This document shows positions 1,753 to 62,272 of a stretch of 64,000 nucleotides of DNA, in pieces. The position numbers were made by a program, and so were the translations under genes. Position 1 is the stretch's first letter; each line of letters starts with the position of its first letter. A model generated the notes under the pieces. That model was not told the origin of the DNA and did no database searches. It saw nothing but the letters and a program-made list of their open reading frames with translations. Source of the DNA: a bacterium (GTDB taxonomy: Bacteria; SAR324; NAC60-12); the NCBI GenBank assembly GCA_965205865.1, contig CBDBHR010000030.1, positions 864,001-928,000 on the forward strand. Direction: 5' to 3'.

Positions 1753-1807
1753 AAAGGTGGCTACGCGCCATGGGCCTTCACCAGTCCCGTTCTAGAGAAG
1801 CTGGTCA

Positions 1808-1932: not shown

Positions 1933-1956
1933 TTAGTCGTCGGTCTGTCAGCGACT

Positions 1957-2610
1957 ATGCTTATTGTTGTCGTTGCTGTTCTGATAGGCGGCATTTCAGG
2001 GTTCATTGGCGGCAAACCGGACCTGGTGGTGCAGCGCTTTGTCGATGCCTGGATGGCTTTTCCAGGACTGCTGCTCTTGTTAACGATTATGTCCATAGCG
2101 GGGCAAGGTCTGTTACAGATAATACTGGTCCTGGGGATAGCAGGGGGCATCGGCAGCTCAAGAGTAGCCCGAGGCGCCGTGATCGGCATTAAGGAGAATG
2201 ACTATTTTCTGGCAGCTCGGGCCGTGGGTACACCGACCAGCCAAATCCTCAACCACCATGTGCTGCCCAATTTTATGGCACCCGTCATCATTATCTTCTC
2301 CATTAACATCGGGGGGGTGATTATGTCTTTGGCTTCTCTGGGCTTCCTCGGATACGGTCTGCCACCCAGCATTCCTGACTGGGGAGGCATGCTCAGCCGG
2401 GAAGGGCGCCGGTACATGGAGCAGGCTCCCTGGCTGGCGCTCTGGCCGGGGCTTAGCCTGACGATTGTCGTCTACTCCTTCAACATGTTCGGAGATGCCC
2501 TCAGGGACCTGCTCGATCCGCGGCTGCGGGGTGGTGAGGGCAGTTATGGCGCAACGGCGAAACGCAAACGAGGTCTCCTGGCCCGACTGATCAACCCGTT
2601 CAACGAGTAA
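1957..2610 (+). pseudogene. DppC/OppC-type permease, 5'-truncated
   Basis: EAA-type loop (ENDYFLAARAVG), FNMFGDALRDLLDPR; N-terminal ~100 aa replaced by the element end. Confidence 0.85.
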
Positions 2611-2674
2611 GCGCACCAAAAGAACCTGTCCCTGTTACAGACGTGGTTGTCGTGAGAAACCAGAGAAAAAGAGC

Positions 2675-3565
2675 TTAAACATCTGGATCAATTCCTGCTT
2701 TTTTCAAGATTTCTCTGAGATGTTTTTCTTTAGCTTCCGCCTCTTCCTTATCTTGCACCGCCTCTTCCTCTCTCCGCAGGGCTTCTTCCTTAACTTGCAC
2801 CGCCTCTTCCTCCCTCCGCAGAGCCTCTTGTTTATCTCGTAGAGCCTCTTCTTTGTCTTGTAGGGCATCTTCTAAAAGTTGTTGCCTTGTTTGTTCTTCA
2901 CGGATGGCATTTTGACGGGCTTGGTATAAATGATAATTCGCTTCTTTTTCTGAAAATCTCTCCAGGACTGCCATGGCTTGCCTCATTTCAGGGGTGTTGA
3001 TGATTTCAGGTAATTCCTCCCAATGCTCAGCTTCTTTAAAAAAATATAACCATTGATCTTCTGTTTTCAAGGTCTCGGAATACCGCCATTTTTCCAATTC
3101 CAAAACATGGACTGAGCAATGCTCCGATAATCGTTTTTGGTTCTCTTGATCCACCAGTTGGAAGTGATGATGAAATGCCGGACTCTCAGGAATCAGGTTT
3201 TCAGTCAACATCCAAATGGAGATAACCGGACGTAATTCTGAGAATGGCTCCCCGCTTTGTAACTGGGACTGATAGATATCACTCCACGTATAGAGAATCC
3301 TCTCCGGCAAATAGGAAAAAACCGCCAATTGAATTTCTATCTGATAGGCCGTCCCTTTTTCATCTTTGGCTTTCACATCGACAATCGTCAACTTGTCCGA
3401 ATAAAACTCGCGTTCATTGTAGGGGTTGAGGATTTCGACATCCGAGATGGGAAACTGGGCTGCCAGGACACCGTTGAGGAAATCAATCAGTAAGTTCTCA
3501 TTTTCCTCTGCCCCCAAAATGGCCTTGTAGACACAATCGACTGTCGGAGAAATGCGATGTTTCAC
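2675..3565 (-). CDS. Rpn family recombination-promoting nuclease / PD-(D/E)XK protein
   Basis: SPTVDCVYKAILG, VDVKAKD...YQIEIQ motif, C-terminal EEALR heptad repeats; GTG start after GAGGAG. Confidence 0.9.
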   Translation of the reverse strand: MKHRISPTVDCVYKAILGAEENENLLIDFLNGVLAAQFPISDVEILNPYNEREFYSDKLTIVDVKAKDEKGTAYQIEIQLAVFSYLPERILYTWSDIYQSQLQSGEPFSELRPVISIWMLTENLIPESPAFHHHFQLVDQENQKRLSEHCSVHVLELEKWRYSETLKTEDQWLYFFKEAEHWEELPEIINTPEMRQAMAVLERFSEKEANYHLYQARQNAIREEQTRQQLLEDALQDKEEALRDKQEALRREEEAVQVKEEALRREEEAVQDKEEAEAKEKHLREILKKAGIDPDV

Positions 3566-44098: not shown

Positions 44099-44815
44099 TC
44101 ACACTCCTAAATAACGGTGCCGAGCATCCAAATCTTCTGCGAGCAATGCCGAATCTCCCGACCATACGATGCGACCCCTCTCTAAAATATAATGATGATC
44201 GGCAAAGCGAAGGAGGGATTCGATGTGTTTGTCGATGACAAGGATTGATTGTCCGGTCTTCTTCAAGACTTCAAGACAGCGCCAGATTTCCTTGCGAATC
44301 AGAGGGGCTAAGCCTTCTGTCGCTTCGTCAAGAATGAGTAAACGGGGATTGGTCATCAAGGCGCGACCGATGGAGAGCATTTGCTGCTCCCCTCCGGAAA
44401 GTTGGTTCCCGCGATATTTTTGGCGCTGTGCCAGGATGGGAAAAATTTGCAAGACCCGTTCGAGGGTCCAGGGAGCAAGGGATCTTGTTTGAACGGAATC
44501 TCAGCGGATTCCTTGCTGTTGCCAGTAGATTTTCCTTGACTGACAAATTGGGGAAAATCTGACGTCCTTCCGGCACCAATCCCACGCCAAGTCGGGCAAT
44601 CCGGTAGGAGGGAAGGTGCTGGATTTCTCTCCCTTCCAGCAGAATTTTTCCTCGATGCGTCGGTGTCAATCCGATGATGGAGCGCACGGTTGTGGTTTTT
44701 CCCATGCCATTGCGTCCCAAAAGAGTGACAGCTTGCCCTTCTTAATTTTGAGATCGATGCCAAATAAAACCTGGCTGCTGCCATAAAACGTTTCGATTTT
44801 TTGCACTTCCAACAT
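44099..44815 (-). pseudogene. livF: Branched-chain amino acid ABC ATPase, two frameshifts
   Basis: MLEVQKIETFYG, GRNGMGKTT, LSGGEQQML, LDE in three frames. Confidence 0.8.
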
Positions 44816-45567
44816 CAGAGGACCTCATCGCCCAGATACGCGGTTCGCACGTTTTCGTTGTTACGGATTATTTCCGGGAGTCCGCTGGCAATTACTTTAC
44901 CGTAGACCAGCACGGTCAGACGGTCGGAAAGGGTAAAGACCGCATCCATATCATGCTCGACCAGCAAAATGGTATAGTCGTTTTTCAATGTCCGTAATAG
45001 TTGGATCATCCGGAGCGATTCTTCGGCTCCCATTCCGGCCAAAGGTTCATCCAGGAGCAATAAAACCGGCTCAGAGGCGAGGGTCATGGCGATTTCCAGT
45101 TGACGTTTTTCGCCATGCGCCAGATGACCTGCCAAGGTAGGCGCACGATCGGCCAATCCCACCTGATCGAGAATACGCAAAGCCGGTTCTCGCAGAGTGC
45201 GGTCCGTTTTTGCGGATTTCCAGAAATGAAAGCTGTGCCCTTGTCGAGCCTGCACTGCCAATGCCACATTGTCTTCTGCAGTCAGCGCTTCAAAAATAGA
45301 CGTGATTTGATAAGAACGAGAAATTCCCTGGCGCACCCTTTTGTGGATAGGCCAGTGGGTGATTGACTCTCCTTGAAACAACAGGCTCCCTCCATCGGGG
45401 ATCAATTCACCGGAGAGTTGGGCAATTAAAGTAGTTTTTCCGGCGCCATTGGGACCAATCACGGCGTGCAGTTTGCCTTTCTCCAGTTCCAGGGAAAGCC
45501 CGTCAATTGCTTTGAGCGCGCCAAAATTTTTACGCAACTGGCGGATTTCCAAAATGTTGTCAGCCAT
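44815..45567 (-). CDS. livG: Branched-chain amino acid ABC ATPase
   Basis: GPNGAGKTT, LLLDEP, VEHDM, YLG. Confidence 0.9.
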   Translation of the reverse strand: MADNILEIRQLRKNFGALKAIDGLSLELEKGKLHAVIGPNGAGKTTLIAQLSGELIPDGGSLLFQGESITHWPIHKRVRQGISRSYQITSIFEALTAEDNVALAVQARQGHSFHFWKSAKTDRTLREPALRILDQVGLADRAPTLAGHLAHGEKRQLEIAMTLASEPVLLLLDEPLAGMGAEESLRMIQLLRTLKNDYTILLVEHDMDAVFTLSDRLTVLVYGKVIASGLPEIIRNNENVRTAYLGDEVL

Positions 45568-46561
45568 GCTCCCTTTCCTCTTCTCCGATAAATAAGCCAT
45601 AAAGGCCGCGCTTACTGAACAAGACCACAAGGATCAGAAATGGTCCGAAATACAACATCCAATGTTCGGTATAAGCGGATAGGATTTCTTCTATGGACAA
45701 AAACGCAATTGCTCCAAACACGGCTCCAAACAGGGTGCCCATTCCCCCCAAAACAACCATGATCAATATTTCTCCGGATTGTGTCCAATGCAGGAGGTCC
45801 GGGCTGACGTATTCCAAATGGTTACTCATCAGGATCCCTGCTAAACCGGCGCCGGCCCCCGAGATTGTGAATGCCGTCAGTTTATATATGTAGGTGGGAA
45901 ACCCCAGGGTTTTCATACGCTGCTCGTTTTGTTCGCACCCTTGGAGCACCATGCCAAAGCGCGCATGAATCAATCGATGGGAGAAGAGGACAAATAGCAA
46001 CAAGAAGGCAAAGCAAATATAGTAGAAGGTCGTGTCGTTGTTGAGGTCCAAGTCGAAAAGCGTGTTACGTTCGTACATGCTCATACCATCATCGCCTCCG
46101 TAAGTTTCCAAAGAAATGAAGAAAAAGAAGAGCATTTGGGCAAAGGCCAGCGTAATCATCAAAAAGTAGACCCCGCTGGTGCGCAGGCTTAAGGCGCCAA
46201 TCACCAAGGCGAACAAAGCGGTCACCACTATGCTGACAGGCCAAGCCAGCAGCGCATCATTGCTACCTGGGATTTCGACAGGCCAACTGAGGAAGGGCGT
46301 TCCCTCCGCATAATGAAAAGCCAGAATGCCCACGCCATAAGTCCCCATTCCGAAAAAAGCAGCATGTCCCAAACTGACCATCCCTCCATATCCCAGAATC
46401 AAGTCGAGACTGACCGCGGCAATTCCATAAATAAGACAACGTCTGAAAAAGGGAATCAGATAGTTTTGATCCAGGATTTCTGCAAGCGGTGGTAAGCAGA
46501 AGAGAAAGGCGAATAAAAAGAAAAGAACAAATTTTTTACGGGTCAGTTTAAGCATTGGCAT
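45560..46561 (-). CDS. livM: Branched-chain amino acid ABC permease
   Basis: GYGGMVSLGHAAFFG, YFLMITLAFAQM. Confidence 0.9.
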   Translation of the reverse strand: MPMLKLTRKKFVLFFLFAFLFCLPPLAEILDQNYLIPFFRRCLIYGIAAVSLDLILGYGGMVSLGHAAFFGMGTYGVGILAFHYAEGTPFLSWPVEIPGSNDALLAWPVSIVVTALFALVIGALSLRTSGVYFLMITLAFAQMLFFFFISLETYGGDDGMSMYERNTLFDLDLNNDTTFYYICFAFLLLFVLFSHRLIHARFGMVLQGCEQNEQRMKTLGFPTYIYKLTAFTISGAGAGLAGILMSNHLEYVSPDLLHWTQSGEILIMVVLGGMGTLFGAVFGAIAFLSIEEILSAYTEHWMLYFGPFLILVVLFSKRGLYGLFIGEEEREHG

Positions 46562-47462
46562 GAAACAATCCGGTGGGACGCCACATCAGGACTATGGCCA
46601 TGAGAAGGTAAATAGAAACGGAAGCCAGAGCGCTACCCACGCCGTCTGCATAAGCATTGGACATGAAGAGGCGAAAGAAGGCAGGAAGAAAGGCCCGTCC
46701 CAAGGTATCCACAACTCCCACAATGAGGGCGCCCACAAAAGCGCCGCGAATCGAGCCAATACCGCCAATGACGACAACCACAAAAACCGGAATAAGGATA
46801 TTTTCTCCCATGCCTGCTTCCACCGACATGATTGGTCCGGCCATCACGCCTGCCAATCCTGCCAACATGGCACCCAAGCCAAAAACCAGAGTGTAAAGCA
46901 ATTTGATGTCGACCCCCAGGGCGCCAATCATTTCACGGTTGCTTGCGCCGGCCCGAATCAGCATTCCTGAACGAGTATGGTTGATCAAAATATAGAGAAA
47001 AACAGCCACTGCAATGCCCACTGCAATGATCGCCAAACGATAGGAAGGATAAGGCGCATCCGGCAGGAACTCGATTGCCTGAGAAAAGAGGGGGGGCGCA
47101 TCAAAGAACAAAGCGCTCCGCCCCCAAATCACCTGGACCGCCTCGTTGAAGAAGAAAATCAATCCAAACGTCACCAGCACCTGATCCAGGTGATTGCGTT
47201 CATAGAGCGCACGCGAAGTGAGGATTTCCACCAGTATGCCAACCAGGCCTGTTGCCAGTAGGGCCGCCAGTAAACCCAGCAGGAAATTACCGCTGAGATT
47301 GCTCACCGTAGCGGCTACAAAAGCCCCAATCATATAAAAAGAACCATGAGCCAGATTGATCAGATTCATGATTCCAAAAACCAGGGTTAAGCCGGCAGCC
47401 ATTAAAAACAGCATCACTCCCAGTTGCGCGCCGTTCAGAATTTGTTCAAGCAACAACCACAT
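46548..47462 (-). CDS. livH: Branched-chain amino acid ABC permease
   Basis: GLTLVFGIMNLINLAHG, VVIGGIGSI. Confidence 0.9.
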   Translation of the reverse strand: MWLLLEQILNGAQLGVMLFLMAAGLTLVFGIMNLINLAHGSFYMIGAFVAATVSNLSGNFLLGLLAALLATGLVGILVEILTSRALYERNHLDQVLVTFGLIFFFNEAVQVIWGRSALFFDAPPLFSQAIEFLPDAPYPSYRLAIIAVGIAVAVFLYILINHTRSGMLIRAGASNREMIGALGVDIKLLYTLVFGLGAMLAGLAGVMAGPIMSVEAGMGENILIPVFVVVVIGGIGSIRGAFVGALIVGVVDTLGRAFLPAFFRLFMSNAYADGVGSALASVSIYLLMAIVLMWRPTGLFHANA

Positions 47463-47467
47463 GTGAA

Positions 47468-48646
47468 TTATAACTCACAATCTCTGGCATAGGCATCCAC
47501 ATGGTTGGTAAAAACTTTTTCAATCGTTTTGTTTGTCAGGCTACCGTCCGCTTTTTTGAAAACTTGACGGAGGTAGAAATCCTGGACAGGATGCTGATTT
47601 TTGCCAAACATGAAATTGCCGCGAACTGATTCGAAATCCGCATTTCTCAGTGCTTCCCGCAGACTGTCCGTGTCCGATACATCGCCATTGAGCGCTTTGA
47701 GAGCGCTGGCGATCAGCAGAGCCGCGTCGTAACCCTGGCTGGCATAGACGGTCGGATACTTGCCGTGTTTTTTACGATAGGCATGCACGAATTGGCGACT
47801 GCTGGGGTTATCAAAGTCGTGATTCCAATGAGTCGTATTATAGAATCCTACCGTCACTTCTCCAATCGCTTTGAGGATGCGTTCATCAAACGACCAGGCG
47901 GGACCGTAGACATTTATTTCTTTATGCAATCCTGCTTGTATGAATTGCTTCATGAAGTTGATACCCATGCCGCCAGGCAGAAAGAAAAAAATGCCTTTGG
48001 GCTTCGCGGCGCGCAAGTTGGAGATTTCTGCGGCATAATCGGATTGTCCCAATTTGACATAGACCTCTCCGCTAACCGACCCTTTGTAAAAACGCTTGAA
48101 TCCGGCAATCATATCCTTTCCTGCCTGGTAATTGACCGAAAGCAGGTAGGTGTCTTCTTTGCCCTTCGTCGTTAAATAATTCCCCATCGCCTCAGGTATG
48201 CCATCGTTCTGCCAGGAGACGTTGAAATAATTTTTATCACAACCTTTGCCGGCAAACTTGGAAGAGCCTGCATTGGGGCTGATAAAGATTTTTCCCTTGC
48301 GGGTTACTTTTGGAACTACGGCATTGAGGACGTTGCTGAAAATGATGCCCGTAACGATATCGACTTTATCACGATTTATGAAGCGCTCGGCAATTTCGAT
48401 GCCTTTTTGCGGTTTTCGGTTGTCATCCTCCACCAATAGTTTGATTTCGATGCCACCGAGGGCGCCTCCTTCTTTCTCCATCGCCAGTATGAAGCCATCT
48501 CGCACTTCCTCGCCCAAATATCCGGATCCCGTGGAGAGCGTTGTGATCATTCCGATTTTAACGGGGGCGGCCGTCAACAGGCTGGAACTGAAAAAGATTC
48601 CACAGACTGCAACCATAAATGATAAATAAATTTTTATTTTTTTCAT
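47468..48646 (-). CDS. Liv-type (PBP1) ABC substrate-binding protein
   Basis: Signal peptide, VKIGMITTLS, EDD, QGYDAA. Confidence 0.9.
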   Translation of the reverse strand: MKKIKIYLSFMVAVCGIFFSSSLLTAAPVKIGMITTLSTGSGYLGEEVRDGFILAMEKEGGALGGIEIKLLVEDDNRKPQKGIEIAERFINRDKVDIVTGIIFSNVLNAVVPKVTRKGKIFISPNAGSSKFAGKGCDKNYFNVSWQNDGIPEAMGNYLTTKGKEDTYLLSVNYQAGKDMIAGFKRFYKGSVSGEVYVKLGQSDYAAEISNLRAAKPKGIFFFLPGGMGINFMKQFIQAGLHKEINVYGPAWSFDERILKAIGEVTVGFYNTTHWNHDFDNPSSRQFVHAYRKKHGKYPTVYASQGYDAALLIASALKALNGDVSDTDSLREALRNADFESVRGNFMFGKNQHPVQDFYLRQVFKKADGSLTNKTIEKVFTNHVDAYARDCEL

Positions 48647-49224
48647 GAAAACTCCCGGGAAAATGTCTCCGCGGCAACCCTTTGCAACCGCAACTGCGTG
48701 GTCGGATAAAATAATTTTCCCTGTCCTTCCTATACCAGGGTCGCAAGTTTCGAAACAACGAGGCCACGTAAATTTCATGATATTGGTTTCTGTGGTTGAG
48801 AAACAAGCTTTTTTTCTCGTAGCTGGCCGGTGATATTTTCAGCCTCATCGGAGAGGAGGAAGGCCAACATTTTGTTCCGACGCAGGATTGGGGACTGCCA
48901 CGTCTGCAGACGTACATTTCCGCGGCAATTGCTGTATCACTCTTGTCGCCACCCTCAGTCACTCGGATCCTGCAGGTATTGTCCTCAGTTGGATGCAAGA
49001 AAATATTCCATGTTGCTGCAGCCAGCTTTGAAAAATATCGCTACGTAATCTGAGTTCGATATAAATCTTCAATAATATGAGTATCCTAGCGTATATTTCA
49101 TCCTCAGATCGATGAACAACTCTTGCGCTTAAAACAATTTCTTATTACCAATACGCAAGTCCGACCCCATTTCTATAAATCTTTTGTTTTGAATAAAAAA
49201 TATTTGAAAATTTTTGTAATTTGC

Positions 49225-49252
49225 TTGCTTTTATAAATATATACTTTATGAT
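49225..49252 (+). promoter_or_regulatory. Putative sigma70 promoter
   Basis: TTGCTT-N16-TATGAT with AT-rich upstream, directly before the structured element. Confidence 0.45.
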
Positions 49253-49256
49253 GTAG

Positions 49257-49550
49257 GTGCTCTAATCAAAATAGAGCAAGAGGCCAGGACGGGAATCAAA
49301 CCCGTATGTCAGATATTGCTAGTATCTGATCCTACCTTTGGATACCTGGCCATGTAGAAGTGTTTTGGCGCTGTTACTCTCACGGCCTCTAGAGTCAAGC
49401 TAGAGAAGGCAAACGGAATTGGGACTCCGTCTTGTCTGCCAATTATTTCACTTCTACGGCAGTTTGTCTCTGAGCGTATGCTTATTTCGCCACAGAGACA
49501 ATTAGTATAGAGCGGAGTAAGGGATAAAATTCTATCCCTCTCCGCCTATC
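49257..49550 (+). ncRNA. Unannotated multi-domain structured RNA candidate
   Basis: Five consecutive helical domains, no ORF; G-U pairs favour + strand. Confidence 0.55.
49281..49351 (-). tRNA. tRNA-like cloverleaf (anticodon AGC, U discriminator, TTTGATT T-loop); probably not a canonical tRNA
   Basis: GGCCAGG/CCTGGCC, ATCC/GGAT, AGATA-CTAGCAA-TATCT, ACGGG-TTTGATT-CCCGT; no CCA. Confidence 0.5.
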
Positions 49551-50154
49551 TCATTTTAATCTAATTGGTTTGGGGTCACTCATTAGAGGAATAGCCAAGA
49601 AAAAAAACACTTTTCCGTCCATAAATCAGGGTGACCGATTTGCGTGTAGTCCTCAGCATTTGGCACTACAATTTTTGATAAACGCACCATTTATTTCAAG
49701 AGTTTGAGTCATTCCTTCAAAATGGATCAAAGGAACGCTCCAGTCACTCATCAGGATCAAGGAGTGGGCCGATCTTCAGGTCCGACTCCCCTGGCAAAAT
49801 AATTTGCCCTGGAAAAACATATGTACCTTGTTGTGTCCAATGGTTTGTACAGGCTTTTGGCTCACGGTTCCGTCCGCGTCCATCCCCTTGATGGCTCACC
49901 GCAAGGGCGTTCGAAAATTGTATTGCTTTCATCTGAGGGGTTGGAGACCGCTTTCCAATCAGGCTAATGGCTCGTTGGAAGGTGGTCAGGCCTTTAATTA
50001 AATAAAAAGGAAGCAAAAAAACAAGACTCGTTCCTAATCAAATAATCAAAGGCCTGACCCCCTCTTAAGAACACATTAGAGGATTCCTCCATTTGTCAAG
50101 GGACCGTATTTGAACCGATACTTGCACTGGGGAGCACAACTCGTTTTGATACAA

Positions 50155-52413
50155 ATGGCAAAAAAATCGAAGCAACACAAGAACGTCCATTATCTGGCAC
50201 ATGTTCGTCAAGAGGATGACCACTTCATTCCACACGACCTGGACGAACACTTACGTGGAGTAAGTAAACGAGCAGAAGAGTACGCTCGTGTCTTTGGCAG
50301 CGGAGATTGGGCACAGGTAGCAGGATTGTGGCATGACCTGGGAAAATACAGTGCGGAATTTCAGCAGCGTATCAAGTCAGTGTCTGGTTATGAACCCGAA
50401 GCACATCTTGAAGGTCAGAGTGGTCGAGTTGATCATTCGACCGCTGGGGCACAGTACGCGATTGCGCAATTCGGGTTGCATGGACGGATCTTGGCTTACC
50501 TCATTGCTGGTCATCATACGGGATTGCCGGATTGGCAGTCCAGCGATACTGCCGGTGCGGCGTTAAAAGCAAGACTAGATGATGGCAGACACTTAGAACG
50601 AGCACTAAATCAACCGATTCCTCCTGAGATTCTTTTGCAGCCTAAACCTGATAGCATCCTGCTGGGCAAAGCCAAAGGCTTCACCTTGTGGATACGCATG
50701 TTGTTTTCATGTTTAGTTGACGCAGATTTTTTAGATACCAAAGCGTTCATGGACGCGGACAAGACTGCGCAACGTATAGATACTCTGAGGGTCCAAGAGT
50801 TGTTATCATGTTTCAATACCTACATGGAGAGAAATTTTTCAGAGGTTCCGCAGACGTGCGTGAACTGTACCCGCACCAACGTGCTTCGTCAGTGTCGGGA
50901 CAAATCGCACGAATCACCAGGACTGTTTTCGTTGACAGTTCCTACTGGTGGTGGCAAAACGTTGTCGAGTCTCGCCTTTGCTTTAGAGCATGCTAAACAC
51001 CATGGTAAACGGCGGGTGATTTATGCCATTCCGTATACCAGCATTATCGAACAGACTGCAAACTTTTTCCGCGAAATATTTTCTAATGCTGTCGTTGAAC
51101 ACCATAGTAACCTCGATCCCGAAAAGGAAATGGTGAAAAGCCGCTTGGCAGCAGAGAATTGGGATGCGCCATTGATCGTCACCACCAACGTTCAGTTCTT
51201 CGAGTCGCTTTTTGCCTCTAAAACCAGCCGTTGCCGCAAGTTGCATAACATCGCTGATAGTGTGGTGGTCCTGGACGAGGCTCAACTTCTACCGCCTGAG
51301 TTTTTACAGCCAATTCTCGACGTGATGAATCTACTAGTGCACTATTACGGTGTTACCTTTGTATTATCAACTGCAACCCAACCTGCGTTGAGCACGCTTC
51401 AAACTTTCCAACGTACACTTCGAGGTCTTGAGCAAGTGCGCGAAATCATTGACAACCTGGATACTCTGGATCATGACCTGGAACGCGTTACCGTTTCAAT
51501 GCCGAAAAACTTCCGAAAAACGCAGGAGTGGAACGATATTGCACAGCAGATTCAGCAGCACCCTTCTGTATTGGCAGTGGTTAACTCTCGTTCCGATGCA
51601 CGTGAATTGCACCGGCGGATGCCTGAGGATACGGTGCACTTGTCAGCCCTCATGTGTGGAGAGCATCGCTCACGCATTATCGCCGATGTGAAACAGAGGT
51701 TGTGTGTAGGAAAGGTGCGTGTGGTTAGTACGCAATTGGTAGAAGCCGGCGTGGACTTGGATTTTCCCGTGGTATACCGAGCCCTTGCCGGCCTGGACTC
51801 AATTGCCCAAGCGGCTGGAAGGTGTAATCGCGAAGGTAATCTGAAAGATCGCGAAGGTAATCTGAAAAGGGGTCAAGTTTTTGTATTTATACCGCCTAAA
51901 CCCCCCCCACCCGGAATTTTTCGGCATGCGGCAGACACGACCGTTTCGTTGTTGACAATGAATCCCGACAATCCACTAGAACGGGGTTTATTTCGAAGTT
52001 ACTTCCAGCATTTCTACAAGGGTACTGCATCTCTCGATAAACATGATATAACCAGATTGCTGACACCACAGGGAGACAACGACGATCCATTGAAAGTCCA
52101 GTTTCGCACTGCTGCTTATCGTTTTCAATTAATCGACGACTCGGGCTATCGCAGTATAATTGTGCAATATGGCAGCAGTCCTGCATTAATCTGTCGCTTG
52201 CAGAAAGAAGGTCCGGAACGTTGGCTCATGCGCAAGCTCCAGCGCTACACCGTATCGCTGCCAGAATATCAGTTTCGGAAATTGCTGAGCAACAGCGATG
52301 TGGATGAAATCTATCCCGGCATGTTCGCACAAACTTCGGATGTTCTGTATCACCCAGTAATAGGGGTTTTGGTCGATGACACGAACCTTGATCCAAACGT
52401 TTTGATCAGTTAG
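50155..52413 (+). CDS. cas3: Cas3 HD nuclease/helicase
   Basis: HDLGK, VPTGGGKT, LDEAQ, STATQP, STQLVEAGVD, QAAGRCNR. Confidence 0.97.
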   Translation: MAKKSKQHKNVHYLAHVRQEDDHFIPHDLDEHLRGVSKRAEEYARVFGSGDWAQVAGLWHDLGKYSAEFQQRIKSVSGYEPEAHLEGQSGRVDHSTAGAQYAIAQFGLHGRILAYLIAGHHTGLPDWQSSDTAGAALKARLDDGRHLERALNQPIPPEILLQPKPDSILLGKAKGFTLWIRMLFSCLVDADFLDTKAFMDADKTAQRIDTLRVQELLSCFNTYMERNFSEVPQTCVNCTRTNVLRQCRDKSHESPGLFSLTVPTGGGKTLSSLAFALEHAKHHGKRRVIYAIPYTSIIEQTANFFREIFSNAVVEHHSNLDPEKEMVKSRLAAENWDAPLIVTTNVQFFESLFASKTSRCRKLHNIADSVVVLDEAQLLPPEFLQPILDVMNLLVHYYGVTFVLSTATQPALSTLQTFQRTLRGLEQVREIIDNLDTLDHDLERVTVSMPKNFRKTQEWNDIAQQIQQHPSVLAVVNSRSDARELHRRMPEDTVHLSALMCGEHRSRIIADVKQRLCVGKVRVVSTQLVEAGVDLDFPVVYRALAGLDSIAQAAGRCNREGNLKDREGNLKRGQVFVFIPPKPPPPGIFRHAADTTVSLLTMNPDNPLERGLFRSYFQHFYKGTASLDKHDITRLLTPQGDNDDPLKVQFRTAAYRFQLIDDSGYRSIIVQYGSSPALICRLQKEGPERWLMRKLQRYTVSLPEYQFRKLLSNSDVDEIYPGMFAQTSDVLYHPVIGVLVDDTNLDPNVLIS

Positions 52414-52422
52414 GAAAGGGTA

Positions 52423-53154
52423 ATGAAAATCTACTATCTTGAAGTCAGTGGCGACTTTGCTTGTTTCACGCGACCGGAGATGAAGGTCGAGCGTGTCAGT
52501 TATGACGTGATAACGCCTTCGGCTGCGCGTGCCATATTTGAAGCAATTCTTTGGGAACCGGCTATACGCTGGCAGGTGAGAAAGATTGAAGTACTTAAAC
52601 CTATCAAGTGGATCAATCTGCGTCGTAACGAAGTCGGCAGCATTGCTTCGACACACAATATCGAAAGCACGATGAAATCCGGAACCGGTCAGTTAGGGAT
52701 ATATATTGAAGATGAACGCCAACAGCGTGCAGGCTTGTTCCTTCGTGACGTCCAATACCTCATTCATGCGTCGTTCAAGATGCGTGATCCCAGTTCGCAC
52801 AAGCCGAACTTTCCACAGCTGAGTATACGAACGGCGAATGGAGGCGAGTTTGATATGTACAACGAACCGAACCAAGCGGTGAAATTTATGACGATGTTCG
52901 AACGTCGCGCTGCCAAGGGGCAGTGTATTAATCAACCCTATCTAGGCTGTCGTGAATTCGCAGCAGAATTCCGGTTAGTGGAGCCAGGGGACTCACGATC
53001 ACAACCGATTGCTGAGACGCGTGAGTTGGGCTACATGCTGTACGATCTGGACTATCGTAATCTCGCCGATCCCAAGCCACTTTTTTTTCAAGCAAACTTG
53101 GTGAACGGCGTGGTGGACGTTCCAGACTGGGACAGCGAGGAGGTGCGAGGATGA
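52423..53154 (+). CDS. cas5: Type I-C Cas5
   Basis: ACFTRPEMKVERVSYDVITPSAAR, PYLGCREF. Confidence 0.97.
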   Translation: MKIYYLEVSGDFACFTRPEMKVERVSYDVITPSAARAIFEAILWEPAIRWQVRKIEVLKPIKWINLRRNEVGSIASTHNIESTMKSGTGQLGIYIEDERQQRAGLFLRDVQYLIHASFKMRDPSSHKPNFPQLSIRTANGGEFDMYNEPNQAVKFMTMFERRAAKGQCINQPYLGCREFAAEFRLVEPGDSRSQPIAETRELGYMLYDLDYRNLADPKPLFFQANLVNGVVDVPDWDSEEVRG

Positions 53155-54953
53155 TTCTGCAAGCGCTCCACGGCTATTACGAAAGGAAAACCAAATCGGT
53201 AGACAACTCAATACCTCCGGAAGGATGGACTCGGCGAGAAATCGACTACGTTTTAGTTCTCAACAATTCGGGTGAATGCGTTAACATTGAAACGGTTTTT
53301 ACAAAGCAAAAAACAAAGATCATAGGCCGGAACGTAATGCTCCCGGCTATAGGTAAACAAGCCCTAAAACATACAAATAGCGGGAAAGATGCAAACCTTC
53401 TCTGGGACAACACGAGTTTTGTTTTTGGAAGGGGAAACAAAGGCAGCTTAAAAATTAAAAGCTTTATATCAACGATTGATGAATGGTTACAGGATTGTCA
53501 CGATGATGAGGGAATCAACTCTGTAAAAATATTCTGTGGAAGGCTAGCAAACAAGCCGGACTGCACTGACCGTCTTTTAGCTAAATTTGATTTGACTGAA
53601 GACTTTGAGAGACGTGATCCTATTGTTGTATTTCGCTTGGTTAGCGATGGTCCGATTTACATACCGGATCGTTCTGCGGTTAGAGCAGCATACGACAAAG
53701 CGCGATTGTTATCTGCTTCTACCAATAAACATGGAACTTGTTTAGTCACTGGTGGAGAGAAAGAGCCAATTACAAGAAACGAAATGGTCATAAAAGGAGT
53801 TTGGGGTGCCCAGACGTCGGGAGCAAACGTCGTTTCATTCAACGAGCGTGCTTTTGAGTCGTACGGAAAGCGAAAACGTCAAGGAGAAAATGCCCCAATC
53901 AGTCAGTCCGTATCTTTCGCTTACACCACGGCGCTCAACCACTTGCTTCACAGAGATTCGCCGCAGCGTCTCCAAATCGGAGATGCGAGTTCGGTGTTCT
54001 GGGCCGACAAACCTACAGAATTGGAAATGGGAATAGTGGACATATTTAGCGAGCCGCCTCAGGATGATCCGGACCGCAACATTAATGCGGTAAGAAGTCT
54101 CTACACTGCCATCGATTCAGGCTTGTTGGAGAAAGACCAAGGCAAAGCAAAATTCTTTGTTCTGGGTCTTGCTCCCAATGCAGCACGTATCGCCATCCGT
54201 TTTTGGTACCACGGCACGGTAGCAGAAATAGCTGGACGGATTAAACAGCACTTCGATGATATGGCTATTGAGCGCTCACCCCGTGATCCGCTCTATCTTT
54301 CGTTGTTTCGCTTGCTGGTATCAGTGGCAACGCAAGGCAAAGCGGACAATATTCCACCGAATCTTGGTGGTGAGTTGATGCGAAGCATTCTCGTAGGTCT
54401 GCCCTATCCATACACACTGCTCTCGGCTGCCGTGCGCCGGATTCGTGCCGAGCAATCGAAAAAACACCCTAAGGGCCGATTTGTTCAGAATGTTACATAT
54501 TCCCGTGCTGCGTTAATCAAAGCTTGCATCAATCGTGCAACCCGTTATTCAAACCCTGTTATGAAGGAGGAACTAAGCATGTCTCTAGACGAATCCAATA
54601 CAAACGTTGGCTACCGGCTGGGTCGACTGTTTGCGGTGTTGGAGAAGATCCAGGAAGAAGCCAATCCTGGAATCAATGCTACCATACGCGATCGTTACTA
54701 CGGTGCAGCGTCGAGTACGCCGGTGATTGTATTCTCGATTCTGCTGAAGCTTAAAAACCATCATCTTTCTAAATTGGAGAAACCCGGCCGTGTAGTGAAT
54801 ATGGAAAAGCGCATCGGTGAAATCATGGAGAATCTCAGCGATTTCCCAGCGCGATTGTCCTTGGAAGACCAGGGTCGCTTCGCTATCGGCTATTATCACC
54901 AACGGCAGAATTTTTTCAAGAAAACTAAATCAACCTTAATGGAAGGAGACTAA
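53151..54953 (+). CDS. cas8c: Type I-C Cas8c/Csd1 (probable internal Cas11 start MSLDESN)
   Basis: [48 protein letters not shown] before ATG TCT CTA. Confidence 0.97.
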
Positions 54954-54955
54954 AC

Positions 54956-55840
54956 ATGGCAATCGAGAACCGCTACGACTTTGTTTTATTATTTGACGTG
55001 AAAGACGGCAACCCTAATGGTGATCCGGACGCGGGTAATTTGCCACGTGTTGATGCTGAGACCGGGCGTGGGCTTGTGACTGACGTGAGTTTGAAACGCA
55101 AGGTCCGTAACTACGTTGGTATTGTGAAAGAAGAAAAGCCGCCATTTGAAATTTACGTAAAGGAAAAAGCAATCCTCAATAAGCAGCACGAACGCGCCTA
55201 TGAAGCCATTGGCGCTGGTGAATCTCTCAAGGGAGAAGATAAGAAGCGTAAAGGTGGGGACAAAGTAGACGAGGCGCGTGCTTGGATGTGCAAAAATTTT
55301 TATGACGTGCGTACTTTCGGCGCAGTAATGTCTACTGGTGTGAACTGCGGTCAGGTGCGAGGTCCCGTACAACTCACTTTCGCACGTTCGGTGGATCCTA
55401 TCGTTGCCCAGGAACATTCAATTACTCGTATGGCGGTGGCGACGGTGGCGGAATCCGCTAAACAAGAAGGTGACAATCGAACTATGGGCCGCAAACACAC
55501 TGTGCCTTATGGCCTTTACGTAGCGCATGGTTTTGTCTCGGCGCATCTCGCAGATCAAACAAAATTTTCCGATGACGACCTCAATTTATTGTGGAATTCG
55601 CTCGCCGACATGTTTGAACATGATCGTTCAGCCGCACGCGGAGAGATGACAACTCGTGGACTGTATATATTCAAGCACAATTCGCGGCTGGGAAATGCAC
55701 ACGCGCATCGTCTTTTCACATGTATTCAACCCAAGCGGAAAGAAAGTGTCATCGTACCACGAGATTTTGAAGATTATAATATCTCGATTAATAAAAAGAA
55801 CCTGCCCAGTGATGTGAATTTGATTCCTCAAGTAGGTTGA
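54956..55840 (+). CDS. cas7: Type I-C Cas7/Csd2
   Basis: [36 protein letters not shown]. Confidence 0.97.
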
Positions 55841-55844
55841 AGGT

Positions 55845-56180
55845 ATGGGTATTCCAACCTTAACTGCATGGTCCGATGATGATCCCATCATGATCTCCGC
55901 CCTGGAGCATTTCAGCTATTGTCCGCGCCAGTGTGCATTGATTCACCAGGAACAGACGTTTGATGAAAATCTGTACACTCTGCGAGGGCGAGCAGTTCAC
56001 GAGCAGGTTGATGAAAAGGAAGTGATTGTTGTTTACCAGAAACGTAAACAGGAAGAAATCCAGCATCCCATCATCGAACGAAAAGTTCCTATTGGACTGA
56101 TTCCTCATGTCCAAGCCCGTTTACTGGCTCGGGTGTTGCGGGGGGATATGGAAGACTATCTGCCCTTTTTGTATCGCTAA
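55845..56180 (+). pseudogene. In-frame cas4'::'cas1 deletion remnant
   Basis: ISALEHFSYCPRQCALIH (Cas4 N-term) joined to YQKRKQEEIQHP...QARLLARVLRGD..Y.PF (Cas1 C-term). Confidence 0.9.
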
Positions 56181-56212
56181 AAGGTTAGACGGAGGTTGAA
56201 ACAAACAACATA

Positions 56213-56503
56213 ATGCAAGTCTTGATTACGTATGATGTAGCTACAGAACAGAAAGTCGGAAAACGGCGGCTGCGGAGAGTTGCTCAACTGTGCAAGAACT
56301 TCGGCCAGCGGGTGCAAAAGTCTGTCTTCGAGTGTTTGGTCGATCAAGCGCAGTACGAGCAACTGGTTCGATCTCTTGTCAAATGTATTGACGAGAAGGA
56401 GGACAATTTGAGGATTTATCGTTTAAGAGAGCCCAAAGAGCAGTATTGTCAGCACTTTGGAGTAGCTCCTTCGATTAACTTTGATGACCCGCTTTTAGTC
56501 TAA
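56213..56503 (+). CDS. cas2: Cas2
   Basis: VLITYDV...RRLRRVAQLCKNFGQRVQKSVFEC. Confidence 0.97.
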   Translation: MQVLITYDVATEQKVGKRRLRRVAQLCKNFGQRVQKSVFECLVDQAQYEQLVRSLVKCIDEKEDNLRIYRLREPKEQYCQHFGVAPSINFDDPLLV

Positions 56504-56537
56504 TTAAATGTATCTAAGCTTCGGATCTTGTGAAAAG

Positions 56538-56714
56538 AGCGAACCTGAAGCGAGGGCATAGAAACGGGCAGGATCGCGATGGCTGTAAGTCCCGGAATTT
56601 TATAGATTTTCTCGTTCCCTGCGTTGTTTCGTTATCAGACTTTCAGGACAGTTCAAGGAGGATCGCGGAAACGAGGGGAAAATCCTAAGCAAATCAACTG
56701 CTTGGGAGGTTAAA
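56538..56714 (+). promoter_or_regulatory. CRISPR leader
   Basis: Non-coding gap cas2-array with GCGAACC...GATCGCG motifs typical of I-C leaders. Confidence 0.7.
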
Positions 56715-57027
56715 GTAGCGCTCAACCTCCGGGTTGGGTGAGGATTGAAACTAGCATAATAATATTGAGTTTTTTCATCAAAAAAAGCGTAGCACTCAAC
56801 CTCCGGGTTGGGTGAGGATTGAAACTAGTGTAAGAGGATTGAAACTTGATGAAGTGAGATCAATGAGAGGAGTTCCGAAGTAGCACTCAACCTCCGGGTT
56901 GGGTGAGGATTGAAACATATTCAGATGGTGGATTTGGATGAAAAAATACAGTAGCACTCAACCTCCGGGTTGGGTGAGGATTGAAACTAGTGTAAGAGGA
57001 TTGAAACTTGATGAAGTGAGATCAATG
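56715..57027 (+). CRISPR. CRISPR array, 4 full 37-bp repeats plus 2 partial
   Basis: GTAGCACTCAACCTCCGGGTTGGGTGAGGATTGAAAC at 56715, 56789, 56880, 56951; spacers 37, 54, 34 nt and a truncated copy of spacer 2. Confidence 0.95.
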
Positions 57028-57032
57028 TGTAT

Positions 57033-57091
57033 TGGGGTCAGGCTTGCATACTTGTATTTCTTCTGAATACAAGTATGCAAGCCTGACCCCA
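57033..57091. repeat. Perfect 26-bp-arm palindrome (REP-like)
   Basis: TGGGGTCAGGCTTGCATACTTGTATT-N7-AATACAAGTATGCAAGCCTGACCCCA. Confidence 0.9.
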
Positions 57092-57094
57092 TCT

Positions 57095-57500
57095 CAACAC
57101 TCTACGGTCGAATCCGCCATCAACGCTCTGGATGCGCACAGACTCGACCGATGTCCGGATCATGGAATCAAGGGGTTCGAACGTTATGTCGCTCTGGCTG
57201 TGCTTGCAAAAAACATCCACCGTCTCGGCACCGTCCTGCGTGAACAACAAAAAGAACGGCAGCGTCGTAAACGAGGACCCTACAAATAAGCGGCCTGAAC
57301 CCAAGAGTGACTCCCCATTCTGAAACAAGAGGGGAGGCCGGGAGGGGGGGCGAGTGTCCAAAAATAGGGAGGTAACAAAAAATTAGGGATCCCAAAGAAA
57401 AACAGCTTCAATTCTCTAAAATATGGCTTGTTCAAAAACAGATGTTCTCGCGGGTTCTACACCTCCTATTAGTAAAATTGTATTTTTCTGTCAGGCACTA
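57095..57500 (+). mobile_element. ISNCY-like transposase 3' fragment and right end
   Basis: HSTVESAINAL...LDRCPDHG..GFERYVALAVLAKNIHRLG; terminal TTTTCTGTCAGGCACTA. Confidence 0.7.
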
Positions 57501-57508
57501 AATAAGGA

Positions 57509-57796
57509 ATGATGATGAACCCAAGAGTTAAAGACGTATCAGCAAATCCAGATTTCACGATCAATCTTACATTTGATAATGGCGAAAAGAAGGTTTTTGA
57601 TATACGACCTTATTTGGATAAAGGAATTTTTAAAGACCTTAAAGATCTTAAGAAATTCAATTCAGTAAAACCTTTTTTGGGAAGTATTCAATGGGATGGT
57701 GGACAAGATTTTTGTCCAGATACCCTGTATTTAGAGAGCTTTGCCCAACAAGACGGTCAAGCCGACGCCCACCACGCCCCTTCGGTCGAAATTTAG
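57509..57796 (+). CDS. DUF2442-family protein (gene cassette)
   Basis: LTFDNGEKKVFDIRPYL.KGIF..L...IQWDGGQDFCPDTLY. Confidence 0.85.
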   Translation: MMMNPRVKDVSANPDFTINLTFDNGEKKVFDIRPYLDKGIFKDLKDLKKFNSVKPFLGSIQWDGGQDFCPDTLYLESFAQQDGQADAHHAPSVEI

Positions 57797-57860
57797 AGTA
57801 AATTTTTAAAATTTACCTCAAGAGCAACCCAAATGGGCGCTGCTCACCTCAGCGTTCCAC
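57743..57860 (+). other. attC-like site
   Basis: GCCCAAC-N5-GGTCAAGC...GCTCACC-N5-GTT. Confidence 0.65.
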
Positions 57861-58139
57861 CTAACTCGCTACGCTCGCACGTGAACCTTATCGTTCGCTA
57901 GTACAAAATTGGCAGTTGCATTGCTTTTCTTCAGTAGAATACGTTTCTGATTAATCAAATGTTTTTCAAAATTGAAAAATAAATAAAGCGCCGATTTTGT
58001 TAGTTCTGGAAGCACTTTTTCATTGCAACCACTTTCCAGCGCCAGCCGGTGGTTGACCTCGTATTCGTCAAAGGTACCCTCGGCAATGCCCAGCAGCGAT
58101 GGCAACGTCCCCAACCTGTACAGCAGCTTGGGTGCGCAT

Positions 58140-58420
58140 TGACCAAACATTGGAGTTGGAAGAAATTATTCAGGCAGTTTGTCAATTGTATCGCATCACT
58201 GAAAAACAACTCATTGCCAAGGGGAAAGAAAGGAAACTCTCTGAAGCAAGGTCGGTTATTGCCTGGATAGTGCGAGGATCAGAAAATCCAACATTGGAAG
58301 TCTGGGAAGAGCGTTGTGGTCGAGATGGCGTCACCTTAAGCAATGCCATTCGAATTTTGCCAGAACGCGCCAAAACAGGCAAAGATTTGCTAAACAAGAT
58401 GAAAGAGATTGAGGAAAAAC
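58140..58420 (+). pseudogene. Probable RAYT/transposase C-terminal DnaA-like HTH fragment
   Basis: LEEIIQAVCQLYRI...L..KGK.RKLSEARSVIAW. Confidence 0.45.
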
Positions 58421-58544
58421 GATTAATCTCGTTCGGGTCAATTCCCCGCAACCGCTCGGCGTACCGTTGCTGCGTTGAAAAAAAGATAATCCGACAAAAT
58501 ACTCCGCTTGAGCGAAGCGAAAGTCGAACCTCAACGAGAGAGCT

Positions 58545-58695
58545 TGATCCGGTCCAAGATAATGTTTTATTCAAGACGGTCTATGTCGATCACAGAGGAT
58601 ATGGAATTATCTGGAATGATGATCTTGATCTAGCAGAATCAGAACTTTGGATTAATGGCGAAACAGCCGAACAAGTTGATGGAGCAGACTTGTGA
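58545..58695 (+). pseudogene. DUF2442 C-terminal fragment
   Basis: LFKTVYVDHRGYGIIWNDDLDLAESELWING. Confidence 0.7.
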
Positions 58696-58792
58696 CCCTG
58701 CGTTTTTTTCGAGGGATCGTGCCTGTTTTCTACATTATCGTTTTTCCAAAATTCAGTGATAGGCCACAAGAATGCTCATCATAACGTTGAGA
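58666..58792 (+). other. attC site
   Basis: GCCGAAC-N5-GATGGAGC...GCTCATC-N5-GTTGAGA. Confidence 0.7.
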
Positions 58793-58980
58793 CACGGACT
58801 AGCATGGGGCGAAGGTGAATAGACGGGAGAATGGATGAGAGAAGCACAAAAGATTGATAGCATCACACATGAAGCGTCCTGTAAGGATGACATAGGACTT
58901 GACATCTTCCGGGGGAGGCGATAGAGATGGTGGACTTTCTTTAGAAGCATCGGTTTAAAAGAATGTGAAAAGGGGACCTA

Positions 58981-60012
58981 ATGGCAAATATCAGCATGGA
59001 AAAAGAAGGATGGATCGAAGGCATGCCTCGGGATGAGCGGGGATACTGGCACCCTGAAAAAGGGACAGGCCCCCCCAGTCCTTTGTTTGCCTGGCCACCC
59101 AAGCCCCTCGCGGCTTTCAAATACCTGTTTGGCTTCCCGGGTTACCTGTATCCGTGGAATATGATCTATTTTGGCATCGCCATAGTCACGTGGCTCTACT
59201 TCCAGCCGGCCTTGTCTCGCTGTGTCACTTTCCAACTCGACTGGATCCTGGAGATGTTTGTCCGCAACCTCGTGCTGCTGGTCGTCATCTATAGTGCCTG
59301 GCACTACTGGCTCTGGACGCGCAAGTCCCAGGGGTTGCAGTACAAATACAACGCCGAGTGGATGGCAACGGGAAAGCGGAGATTTCTCTGGGGGGACCAA
59401 CTGCGCGACAACATCTTCTGGTGTTGTTTTAGCGCCGTTCCGATCTGGACGGCGTATGAAGCGCTGATGATGTGGGCCTACGCCAACGAGCTGCTGCCCT
59501 ACATCGATCCGCGAGAACAGCCGATCTACTTTATCGTGCTGCTGATCTGCATGCCCATGATTCGGATCTTCCACTTATATTGGGTCCATCGTCTCATGCA
59601 CTGGCCTCCGCTCTTCAAGCGGGTGCACTACCTCCATCACAAAAACATCAATATCGGGCCCTGGTCCGGTGTGGCCATGCATCCGATTGAGCACCTGATT
59701 GTTTTCAGCAGTGTACTGATTCACTGGATCTTGCCCTCGCATCCCATCCACATGCTGATGAACACCCAACACAATGCGCTCCCGCCGGCTCAGGGGCATT
59801 CCGGGTTCCAGCAGTTGGTTCTCAAGGGGAACCTCCAGGTTCCCATCAATAACGGTTTCCATCATCTGCATCACCGTCACTTTGAGTGCAACTACGGAGA
59901 ACCCTATATGCCTTTGGATTATTGGTTCGGCACCTATCACGATGGCTCTCCCGAGGCCCAGGAAGCGATCCTGAAGAAGCAAGCCCGGAAAAACATGAGG
60001 TACAGCGCCTAG
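58981..60012 (+). CDS. Sterol desaturase / fatty acid hydroxylase family protein
   Basis: His boxes HRLMH, HYLHH, HHLHH; D.WFGT. Confidence 0.92.
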   Translation: MANISMEKEGWIEGMPRDERGYWHPEKGTGPPSPLFAWPPKPLAAFKYLFGFPGYLYPWNMIYFGIAIVTWLYFQPALSRCVTFQLDWILEMFVRNLVLLVVIYSAWHYWLWTRKSQGLQYKYNAEWMATGKRRFLWGDQLRDNIFWCCFSAVPIWTAYEALMMWAYANELLPYIDPREQPIYFIVLLICMPMIRIFHLYWVHRLMHWPPLFKRVHYLHHKNINIGPWSGVAMHPIEHLIVFSSVLIHWILPSHPIHMLMNTQHNALPPAQGHSGFQQLVLKGNLQVPINNGFHHLHHRHFECNYGEPYMPLDYWFGTYHDGSPEAQEAILKKQARKNMRYSA

Positions 60013-60064
60013 AATGCAATAGCTGACTGAAATGGATGTTTGACTACGGGCTCCTTTGGTGCGC

Positions 60065-62006: not shown

Positions 62007-62056
62007 CTCACACTCCTTATCAGTCGCAAGTTTAGCCCTATTCTCGTGTGTTCCCG

Positions 62057-62245
62057 CTTCCCGAATGCGGAACACGCGGACGGCCCCTTTCGCAAAGGGA
62101 GGCCACGGGGGATTTCAAAGGCTGTAAAATCCCCCCTTCCCGAATGCGGATCACGCGGACGGCCCCTTTCGCAAAGGGAGGCCACGGGGGATTTCAAAGG
62201 CTGTAAAATCCCCCCTTCCCGAATGCGGATCACGCGGACGACCCT
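62057..62245. repeat. 79-bp tandem repeat x2.4 with internal hairpins
   Basis: CCGAATGCGG at 62061, 62140, 62219. Confidence 0.9.
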
Positions 62246-62272
62246 TTTTCCAAGGGTGATGCCCGTCAAGCA

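Follow-up and report, generated by a model that had tools for sequence, protein, structure and literature searches.

We find that positions 49258-49547 (~290 nucleotides, nt) of a 64,000-nt stretch of the genome of a SAR324 bacterium (lineage NAC60-12; GenBank assembly GCA_965205865.1, contig CBDBHR010000030.1, positions 864,001 to 928,000 of the forward strand) hold a structured element that is under selection and is not a decaying pseudogene. Hereafter "the window" denotes this whole stretch, to which all coordinates refer. The account that we favour, at slightly better than an even chance, is that the element forms a complete gene in itself, whose product is an abundant structured non-coding RNA confined to one genus, that it carries a co-opted copy of a transfer RNA (tRNA) gene, and that the RNA is most likely read from the plus strand and acts in trans. 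Judged from sequence comparison, it would represent a new RNA family of narrow distribution (two genomes) with a tRNA-derived module. An earlier note, made from the sequence alone, had proposed an unannotated structured RNA of five helical domains here, and sequence and folds place all five where it put them. The features are as follows.

49225-49252, plus strand: candidate promoter, TTGCTT-N16-TATGAT, from the sequence and a two-species alignment; the counterpart in the congener is TTGTTT-N16-TATTAT
49259-49279, strand unassigned: hairpin a, TGCTCTA-N7-TAGAGCA, from the fold; at the left margin of the conserved block (first position 49258)
49280-49351, minus strand: tRNA-like cloverleaf (four-way junction 1), called tRNA-Ala(agc) by ARAGORN, nearest to tRNA-Cys(GCA), with U73 and without G3:U70
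49354-49457, plus strand: four-way junction 2, with a 9-bp closing stem, TTGGC/GCCAA and three hairpins
49464-49501, plus strand: hairpin d, TTGTCTCTG...CAGAGACAA, with an inner GCG/CGC helix, from fold and alignment
49509-49547 (stem 49512-49545), plus strand: hairpin e, with a G+C-rich base GCGGAG/CTCCGC, from the fold; right edge of the conserved block

Conservation was assessed between this genome (G000) and a congener (G001), the only other genome of the genus available. In their alignment the conserved block consists of the element alone, running from TGCTCTAAT at 49258 to CTCTCCGCC at 49546. Identity across the element is 85.8%, against 89.0% for 6S RNA, 89.0% for the RNA of ribonuclease P (RNase P) and 94.2% for transfer-messenger RNA (tmRNA) in the same two genomes, and against 52-77% at four-fold-type sites in five orthologous genes. 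A 311-nt stretch containing the element folds on the plus strand at -121.8 kcal/mol (z -7.07, with none of 100 dinucleotide shuffles as good) and on the minus strand at -113.0 kcal/mol (z -6.89 against dinucleotide shuffles). With the structure taken from one species alone, which avoids circularity, differences between the species fall at 15 of 196 paired and 24 of 96 unpaired positions of the plus-strand fold (p = 9e-5), and at 16 of 186 paired and 23 of 106 unpaired positions of the minus-strand fold (p = 2e-3). Two base pairs have changed on both sides, each from C-G to U-A, one at 49369/49438 and the other in the inner helix of hairpin d (columns 223/237). It is because of this excess of identity over the four-fold-type sites, together with the avoidance of paired positions and the double changes, that we regard the element as selected and not decaying. 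The description of the element as an unannotated structured non-coding RNA holds up too, given a folding z of about -7 and no Rfam family at gathering score; across the whole window, such scores are reached only by two group II intron domains, neither of them at the element.

RNA libraries contain the element at high relative depth, though not as a defined transcript. Among the 23 public runs listed for 49000-49800, part of the stretch is found in 20, of which four (X15, X16, X19 and X20) are recorded as RNA; all four are metatranscriptomes, and two are labelled "sponge metagenome", which is consistent with the sponge association of the genus. Over a comparison region of 48600-50400, contigs cover the element in all four RNA runs, in keeping with the transcription that the earlier note had supposed. 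The Logan depths, each of which is a mean over one contig, are 581.7 for a 661-nt contig in X15, 584 to 3098 for several contigs in X16, 2416 for a 665-nt contig in X19 and 23.6 for a 1210-nt contig in X20. Two alleles are present in X16 over 49339-49398, at depths of 2875 and 1398. The separate flanking contigs listed for X19 have depths of 3.6-18.8 over 49586-50041 and 7.3 over 48600-48677, so that the element exceeds its flanks there more than 100-fold. No contig from the RNA runs covers the first 275 bases of cas3, and none falls in 48722-49026 or 50125-50400.

The X16 contigs of depth 2875 and 1398 span the 5' boundary of the cloverleaf at 49351/49352, and because contigs of full depth bridge this point, the RNA is not processed there in the manner of a tRNA precursor. 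Contig boundaries or loose ends occur at 49272-49290 in three of the four RNA runs, a position equally compatible with a 3' end at the tRNA-like terminus and with the start of a plus-strand RNA, and contigs extend beyond the opposite (right) end of the element in three of the four.

The tRNA-like module that the earlier note described on the opposite strand is confirmed by ARAGORN, whose single call in the whole window is a tRNA-Ala(agc) on the minus strand at 49280-49351, and by the scores of R1, a covariance model of the element core (232 columns). Read on the minus strand, the cloverleaf has stems of 7, 4, 6 and 5 bp, with an acceptor stem of GGCCAGG/CCTGGCC, U8, GG in the D-loop, a T-loop-like loop of 7 nt and U73. 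Its closest relative among the tRNAs of its own genome is tRNA-Cys(GCA), with 72% identity, followed by tRNA-Phe with 69%; run with filters off, R1 gives 32.4 bits to the antisense of tRNA-Cys, 27.9 to Lys and 21.9 to Ala (15 tRNA genes, 6 loci). The Rfam tRNA model has no match at the locus at gathering score, and a permissive Rfam scan of 49000-50150 peaks at tRNA-Sec, whose 21.9 bits fall short of the cut-off of 47. G3:U70 is the identity element of tRNA-Ala and the GCA anticodon that of tRNA-Cys. Position 3:70 of the acceptor stem is here C:G, so the cloverleaf is not a working tRNA-Ala; the anticodon is AGC, so neither is it a working tRNA-Cys, to which only U73 fits.

In the congener, the acceptor, D and T stems are identical, while 5 of the 19 positions of the anticodon arm differ and its stem is broken; one additional base follows the acceptor stem, and ARAGORN finds no tRNA in the G001 element. 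In each species the T-loop departs at one position from the tRNA consensus. From its sequence, we read the module as an old, co-opted copy of a tRNA gene, nearest to tRNA-Cys and no longer decodable. The tRNA-like portion amounts to ~72 of the ~290 nt. Unlike tRNA-Cys itself, it bears the anticodon AGC, scores below the Rfam threshold, and is embedded in a longer RNA that is uncut at the cloverleaf 5' edge.

A second resemblance to tRNA fares less well. The earlier note likened hairpin d to the D-arm of tRNA-Leu, and 22 of 28 bases do agree with that arm of the genome's own tRNA-Leu(UAA), but the alignment scores 24, which is within the range of shuffled sequences (mean of the best score per shuffle 20.3, standard deviation 2.2, highest 28), and the likeness is eroded in G001; we accordingly reject the idea that hairpin d derives from tRNA-Leu. 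A normal tRNA-Cys/tRNA-Leu(UAA) pair is present elsewhere in the genome (G000:C24:76500-76673), and the same arrangement, tRNA-Cys(GCA) directly before tRNA-Leu(TAA), is conserved in three further genera of the phylum. Anti-tRNA pairing is also rejected: compared by eye, the plus strand and the complement of tRNA-Cys share no run longer than 5 nt, and a 10-nt plus-strand match to tRNA-Leu is lost in G001, such that we find no conserved complementarity to tRNAs. As a separate observation on the tRNA complement, ARAGORN finds 48 tRNA genes in the 30-contig G000 assembly but no tRNA-Lys, whereas G001 has tRNA-Lys(ttt); the absence from G000 is probably an assembly gap.

As for the strand from which the RNA is read, we judge the plus strand somewhat more likely than not, in which case the tRNA-derived module would be antisense. 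In each of the two species the plus-strand fold is the more stable one, at -119.1 against -110.9 kcal/mol in the first and -107.8 against -101.9 kcal/mol in the second (differences of 8.2 and 5.9 kcal/mol), with base composition balanced. The two G-U pairs in junction 2 that the earlier note had singled out as possible on the plus strand only are real: 49372/49384 and 49409/49435 (columns 120/132 and 157/183) are internal pairs kept in both species; read on the minus strand, they would become A.C. An allele with C>T at 49369 and no change in its partner is present in all four RNA runs, which leaves a U.G pair in a plus-strand RNA but an A.C mismatch in its complement; consequently the pair 49369/49438 forms a series on the plus strand, from C-G (G000) through U.G (variants in the RNA runs) to U-A (G001). 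Hexamers resembling a -35 and a -10 element, spaced by 16 nt, precede the conserved block by 6-8 nt in both species. At the other end, hairpin e (-21 to -23.5 kcal/mol when folded on either strand) is a candidate terminator of a plus-strand RNA. The composition of unpaired bases, with A equal to T, carries no strand signal.

Several observations weigh against a plus-strand transcript so defined. The promoter that the earlier note proposed at 49225-49252 is present as sequence, but agrees with the consensus in just 3 of the 6 bases of its first hexamer, goes uncalled in a promoter scan, and lies in an upstream region whose similarity between the species is not significant (for the 40 nt upstream, 74 of 1000 shuffles score as well). 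The tail 3' of hairpin e is T-rich yet irregular, has no clean T-tract and differs in length among strains, and a terminator scan makes no call there. Covariation amounts to two double changes, drawn from two genomes only. The RNAalifold consensus energies are equal for plus (-94.45) and minus (-95.15 kcal/mol). Six one-sided changes keep their pairing through G-U on the minus strand, whereas on the plus strand the same six sites become A.C mismatches, mostly at helix ends, and the tRNA-like features (U8, D-loop GG, T-loop-like loop and U73) exist on the minus strand only. Finally, the RNA-run contigs show neither strand nor transcript ends. On balance, the plus-strand transcription deduced in the earlier note is weakly supported.

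A number of these points would be explained if the functional RNA were instead the minus strand, an alternative that we hold to be possible, yet clearly the less probable. The RNA would then be ~290 nt long and end in a 3' module that mimics tRNA, derived from tRNA-Cys and working either as a decoy or as a cap that stabilises the 3' end, whose readers would be RNase P or Z, the CCA-adding enzyme, EF-Tu, modification enzymes or tRNA-targeting toxins. Consistent with such a mimic are the ARAGORN cloverleaf with its tRNA-like features, the invariance of its acceptor, D and T stems, the six changes rescued by G-U, and the contig ends at 49272-49290, which lie just past the tRNA-like 3' end in three of the four runs, with the right end overrun in three of the four. 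In addition, the G001 element, read as the minus strand, starts 16 nt past the stop codon of folK. Against it, the minus-strand fold is 6-8 kcal/mol weaker in both species, the hairpin 49370-49386 would carry an internal C.A mismatch in both, and the common 49369 allele would be an A.C mismatch. The broken anticodon arm of G001, the extra base past its acceptor stem and the T-loop departures also count against it; high-depth contigs cross the presumed RNase P cut site, and no conserved promoter is found to the right of the element.

Under the plus-strand account, the transcript would start at or just inside hairpin a and end at hairpin e, and the stable folded RNA would act in trans, binding or scaffolding protein, and would not be a base-pairing regulator. 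We infer a scaffold role because the four-way junctions, which stack perfectly, and their stems are conserved while most loops are variable, and because we find no conserved complementarity to tRNAs. Junction 2, closed by GTAGAAGTG/CACTTCTAC plus TTGGC/GCCAA, includes the hairpin CTCTAG-AGTCAAG-CTAGAG, which is invariant between G000 and G001. The loops that do not vary are AGTCAAG and TTGGGAC (the latter part of the loop of the third hairpin of junction 2), and regulation by base pairing through these two loops may occur. A more ambitious proposal, which we consider unlikely, is that of a novel class of abundant, structured RNA derived from tRNA in symbiotic bacteria, in which the tRNA-Cys copy would be a true mimic, acting as a decoy or dock for a tRNA-binding enzyme or a tRNA-targeting toxin, with the two four-way junctions as the scaffold that displays it; that the element recurs at the margins of variable regions, in this window at the border of a defence island, would then reflect a role in conflict with mobile elements.

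It is very unlikely that the locus is a functionless, decaying cluster of tRNA pseudogenes made up of a Cys-like copy and a Leu fragment. Such an origin would accommodate a cloverleaf that is tRNA-like yet below the Rfam threshold, the fact that tRNA-Cys and tRNA-Leu(UAA) are neighbours in the phylum, and the 22/28 likeness to the tRNA-Leu D-arm. However, it does not accord with an identity of 85.8% where four-fold-type sites retain 52-77%, with differences that avoid paired positions, two of them compensatory, or with the very high RNA depth. Moreover, the Leu likeness is not significant, the Leu-then-Cys order at the element is the reverse of the native Cys-then-Leu, and all but ~72 of the ~290 nt have no likeness to tRNA.

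We attach just as little weight to the idea that the element works at the level of DNA, be it as a site of recombination or attachment, as a group of operators or as a non-autonomous mobile element, its RNA being incidental. The consensus folds equally well on both strands, and each species has the element in a different, variable intergenic site surrounded by dispersed repeats. The palindrome of hairpin a, perfect over 7 bp and interrupted by 7 nt, can also be read as TGnTCTAAT, and could itself be promoter or operator DNA instead of RNA. Yet the element is single-copy in its own genome, no integrase or transposase domain was seen in the flanking open reading frames (ORFs) scanned, the G-U-specific pairs and the wobble intermediate at 49369/49438 point to selection on RNA, and the RNA depth in X19 is more than 100-fold that of the flanking contigs.

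Beyond this genome, the element appears, among the genomes searched, to be restricted to one genus. BLAST against 61 related genomes recovers one full-length homologue, in G001, and R1 over 88 genomes of the phylum gives full-length matches in two, G000 (286 bits) and G001 (282 bits). Three further R1 matches (32-37 bits, in G039, G016 and G009), all outside the genus, are the antisense of tRNA-Cys(GCA) genes adjoining tRNA-Leu(TAA). A pattern scan of a genome contig collection returns the G001 record only, two sequence patterns find no match in Joint Genome Institute (JGI) metagenome contigs, and one pattern finds none in viral contigs. The suggestion in the earlier note that the RNA might derive from a phage gains nothing from these searches, nor from blastn of the element, which has no match in phage and plasmid collections.

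In G000 the element lies in a 1.3-kb intergenic gap (48818-50109), between a branched-chain amino-acid ATP-binding cassette (ABC) transporter operon on the minus strand (44815-48778) and a cas operon of type I-C, in the order cas3, cas5, cas8c, cas7 and truncated cas4, belonging to a clustered regularly interspaced short palindromic repeat (CRISPR) system. The start of cas3, at 50110, is 560 nt downstream, in the orientation of the plus-strand reading. The G001 copy is found at 868 kb between a fumarylacetoacetate-hydrolase gene and folK, with ROK, pheT and S1 protein genes nearby, and the only cas8c homologue of that genome (34% identity) is at 95 kb, ~770 kb from the element. In G000, the orthologous gap between the hydrolase gene and folK is found on a different contig, with unrelated contents: it holds different sequence. 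Conversely, the whole of G000 48818-60050, including the element, the cas operon and the CRISPR array, is replaced in G001 by genes for a histidine kinase, S-adenosylhomocysteine (AdoHcy) hydrolase, 5-formyltetrahydrofolate (5-FTHF) cyclo-ligase, plsX and yceD. Since the conserved block is the element alone and the G001 copy lies between housekeeping genes, the cas neighbourhood is not conserved, and adjacency to the cas operon appears, from the genomic context, to be an accident of a rearranged, repeat-rich region with no functional link.

The explanation that we find hardest to credit takes up the speculation of the earlier note on a link to CRISPR: an RNA module, either CreTA-like or regulating cas3, would aid retention of Cascade-Cas3. 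The element does stand 560 nt upstream of cas3, in the same orientation, at a type I-C locus without cas1 or cas2 and with a truncated cas4, but its homologue is at 868 kb where cas8c is at 95 kb, the gap holds no repeat-like sequence above chance, the only plus-strand mini-ORF is not conserved, and the X19 and X20 contigs depart from the G000 sequence after 49578 and 49515, respectively. Linkage of homologues to cas had been named beforehand in the earlier note as the test of this claim, and the sole homologue fails to show it.

CreTA systems are described as CRISPR-regulated toxin-antitoxin RNA pairs of type I systems (PMC8501985; PMC9458426), in which degenerate CRISPR repeats characterise creA, and tRNA is sequestered by CreT, a translated mini-ORF of small size with many rare codons (PMC8501985). 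As described there, sequestration acts through the rare-codon mini-ORF and not through antisense pairing. Our element resembles CreTA in that, in G000, it is small, non-coding and adjacent to type I cas genes, yet it is much larger and highly structured, and lacks CRISPR-repeat-like sequence, a conserved mini-ORF and conserved cas linkage. Identity with creA, for which one or two degenerate repeats on either side of a spacer-like segment would be expected, was rejected on comparing the 37-nt repeat with both strands of 48818-50109, where the best score is 16 and the null has a mean of 16.3 and a maximum of 24 (200 shuffles). Identity with creT was rejected as well, because the sole plus-strand mini-ORF (ATG TCA GAT ATT GCT AGT ATC TGA; 7 codons), at which no Shine-Dalgarno sequence was seen, has ATA in place of ATG in G001.

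The element is also distinct from the better-known structured RNAs. We rejected identity with tmRNA, 6S RNA, RNase P RNA and signal recognition particle (SRP) RNA, all of which score above their cut-offs elsewhere in both genomes, with none matching here. It is like tmRNA in having a tRNA-like domain inside a longer structured RNA, but the canonical tmRNA is encoded elsewhere in the genome (178.7 bits, tag peptide present) and the element lacks a tag reading frame, G3:U70 and an encoded CCA. In YrlA, the 5' and 3' ends pair into a long stem from which the tRNA-like domain opens, in contrast to the cloverleaf of our element, which is closed and internal. A gene for the Ro60/Rsr protein usually lies near that of a Y RNA. 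Orphan structured RNAs such as IMES, GOLLD, ROOL and raiA have emerged from comparative genomics and marine metatranscriptomes. These share with the element multiple junctions, abundance in environmental RNA, and the lack of coding potential or known function; they differ from it in that the element has no Rfam match to them, is confined to one genus and has a tRNA-derived module. Bacterial Y RNAs of the YrlA type are described as mimics of tRNA (PMC4201824; bioRxiv 10.1101/312249), and the element is comparable to them as a non-coding RNA with a tRNA-like module for which a scaffold role is inferred. Identity with a Y RNA was nevertheless rejected, as the TROVE domain of Ro60/Rsr (PF05731) is found in neither of the two genomes, while a control search finds it in Deinococcus radiodurans and Bacteroides thetaiotaomicron; no Y RNA family is among the seven listed permissive Rfam matches. 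A literature search of limited extent turned up no account of an RNA of this kind.

The surroundings of the element are rich in repeats. To its left, a dispersed repeat of ~60 nt at 49042-49105 has at least 70 copies in the genome (81-95% identity) and adjoins a second family at 49100-49172 (~6 copies); RNA-run contigs with loose ends accumulate at these repeats (49042-49172). To its right, a hairpin-forming dispersed repeat of ~85 nt at 49977-50063, with at least 35 genome copies and inverted-repeat arms at 49964-50012 and 50031-50079, lies 45 nt upstream of cas3. The sequence 49576-49973 is 71.5% identical to G000:C29:660597-660981, and an ORF of 90 amino acids on the minus strand (49744-50016) has no Pfam match. 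The X15 and X16 contigs skip 49646-49940 (295 nt) and therefore come from related strains without those bases. The 661-nt X15 contig closes on itself with an overlap of 30 nt, running from 49149 to 49645, then from 49941 to 50065, then through 10 nt. Because its ends coincide with the dispersed repeat families, this is likely to be an assembly cycle, and not evidence of circular RNA or of a tandem array, although a tandem or circular form may exist in the X15 strain.

The type I-C locus itself (50110-57030) comprises cas3, cas5, cas8c and cas7, without cas1 or cas2 and with Cas4 cut to 111 amino acids; Cas1 is found on another contig only. The array has four full 37-nt repeats in a duplicated 162-nt unit, with partial repeats (GAGGATTGAAAC) 8 nt past two of the full ones, and could be a degenerate or regulatory mini-array. 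Elsewhere in the window, the group II intron noted above occupies 13989-16040 (Rfam D1-D4 at 105.8 bits and D5-D6 at 41 bits, with an ORF of 463 amino acids between them), and a G+C-rich tandem repeat at 62053-62248 (79-nt unit, 2.5 copies, 96% matches) separates two ABC-transporter genes.

The significance of the element is lower than the earlier note had hoped, given that the CRISPR-Cas link fails and the family is found in only two genomes. If confirmed, however, it would be a new structured RNA family without an Rfam model, yet as conserved within its genus as 6S RNA or RNase P RNA and present at high contig depth in sponge metatranscriptomes. It would also offer an unusually clear case of a bacterial non-coding RNA built from a duplicated tRNA gene.

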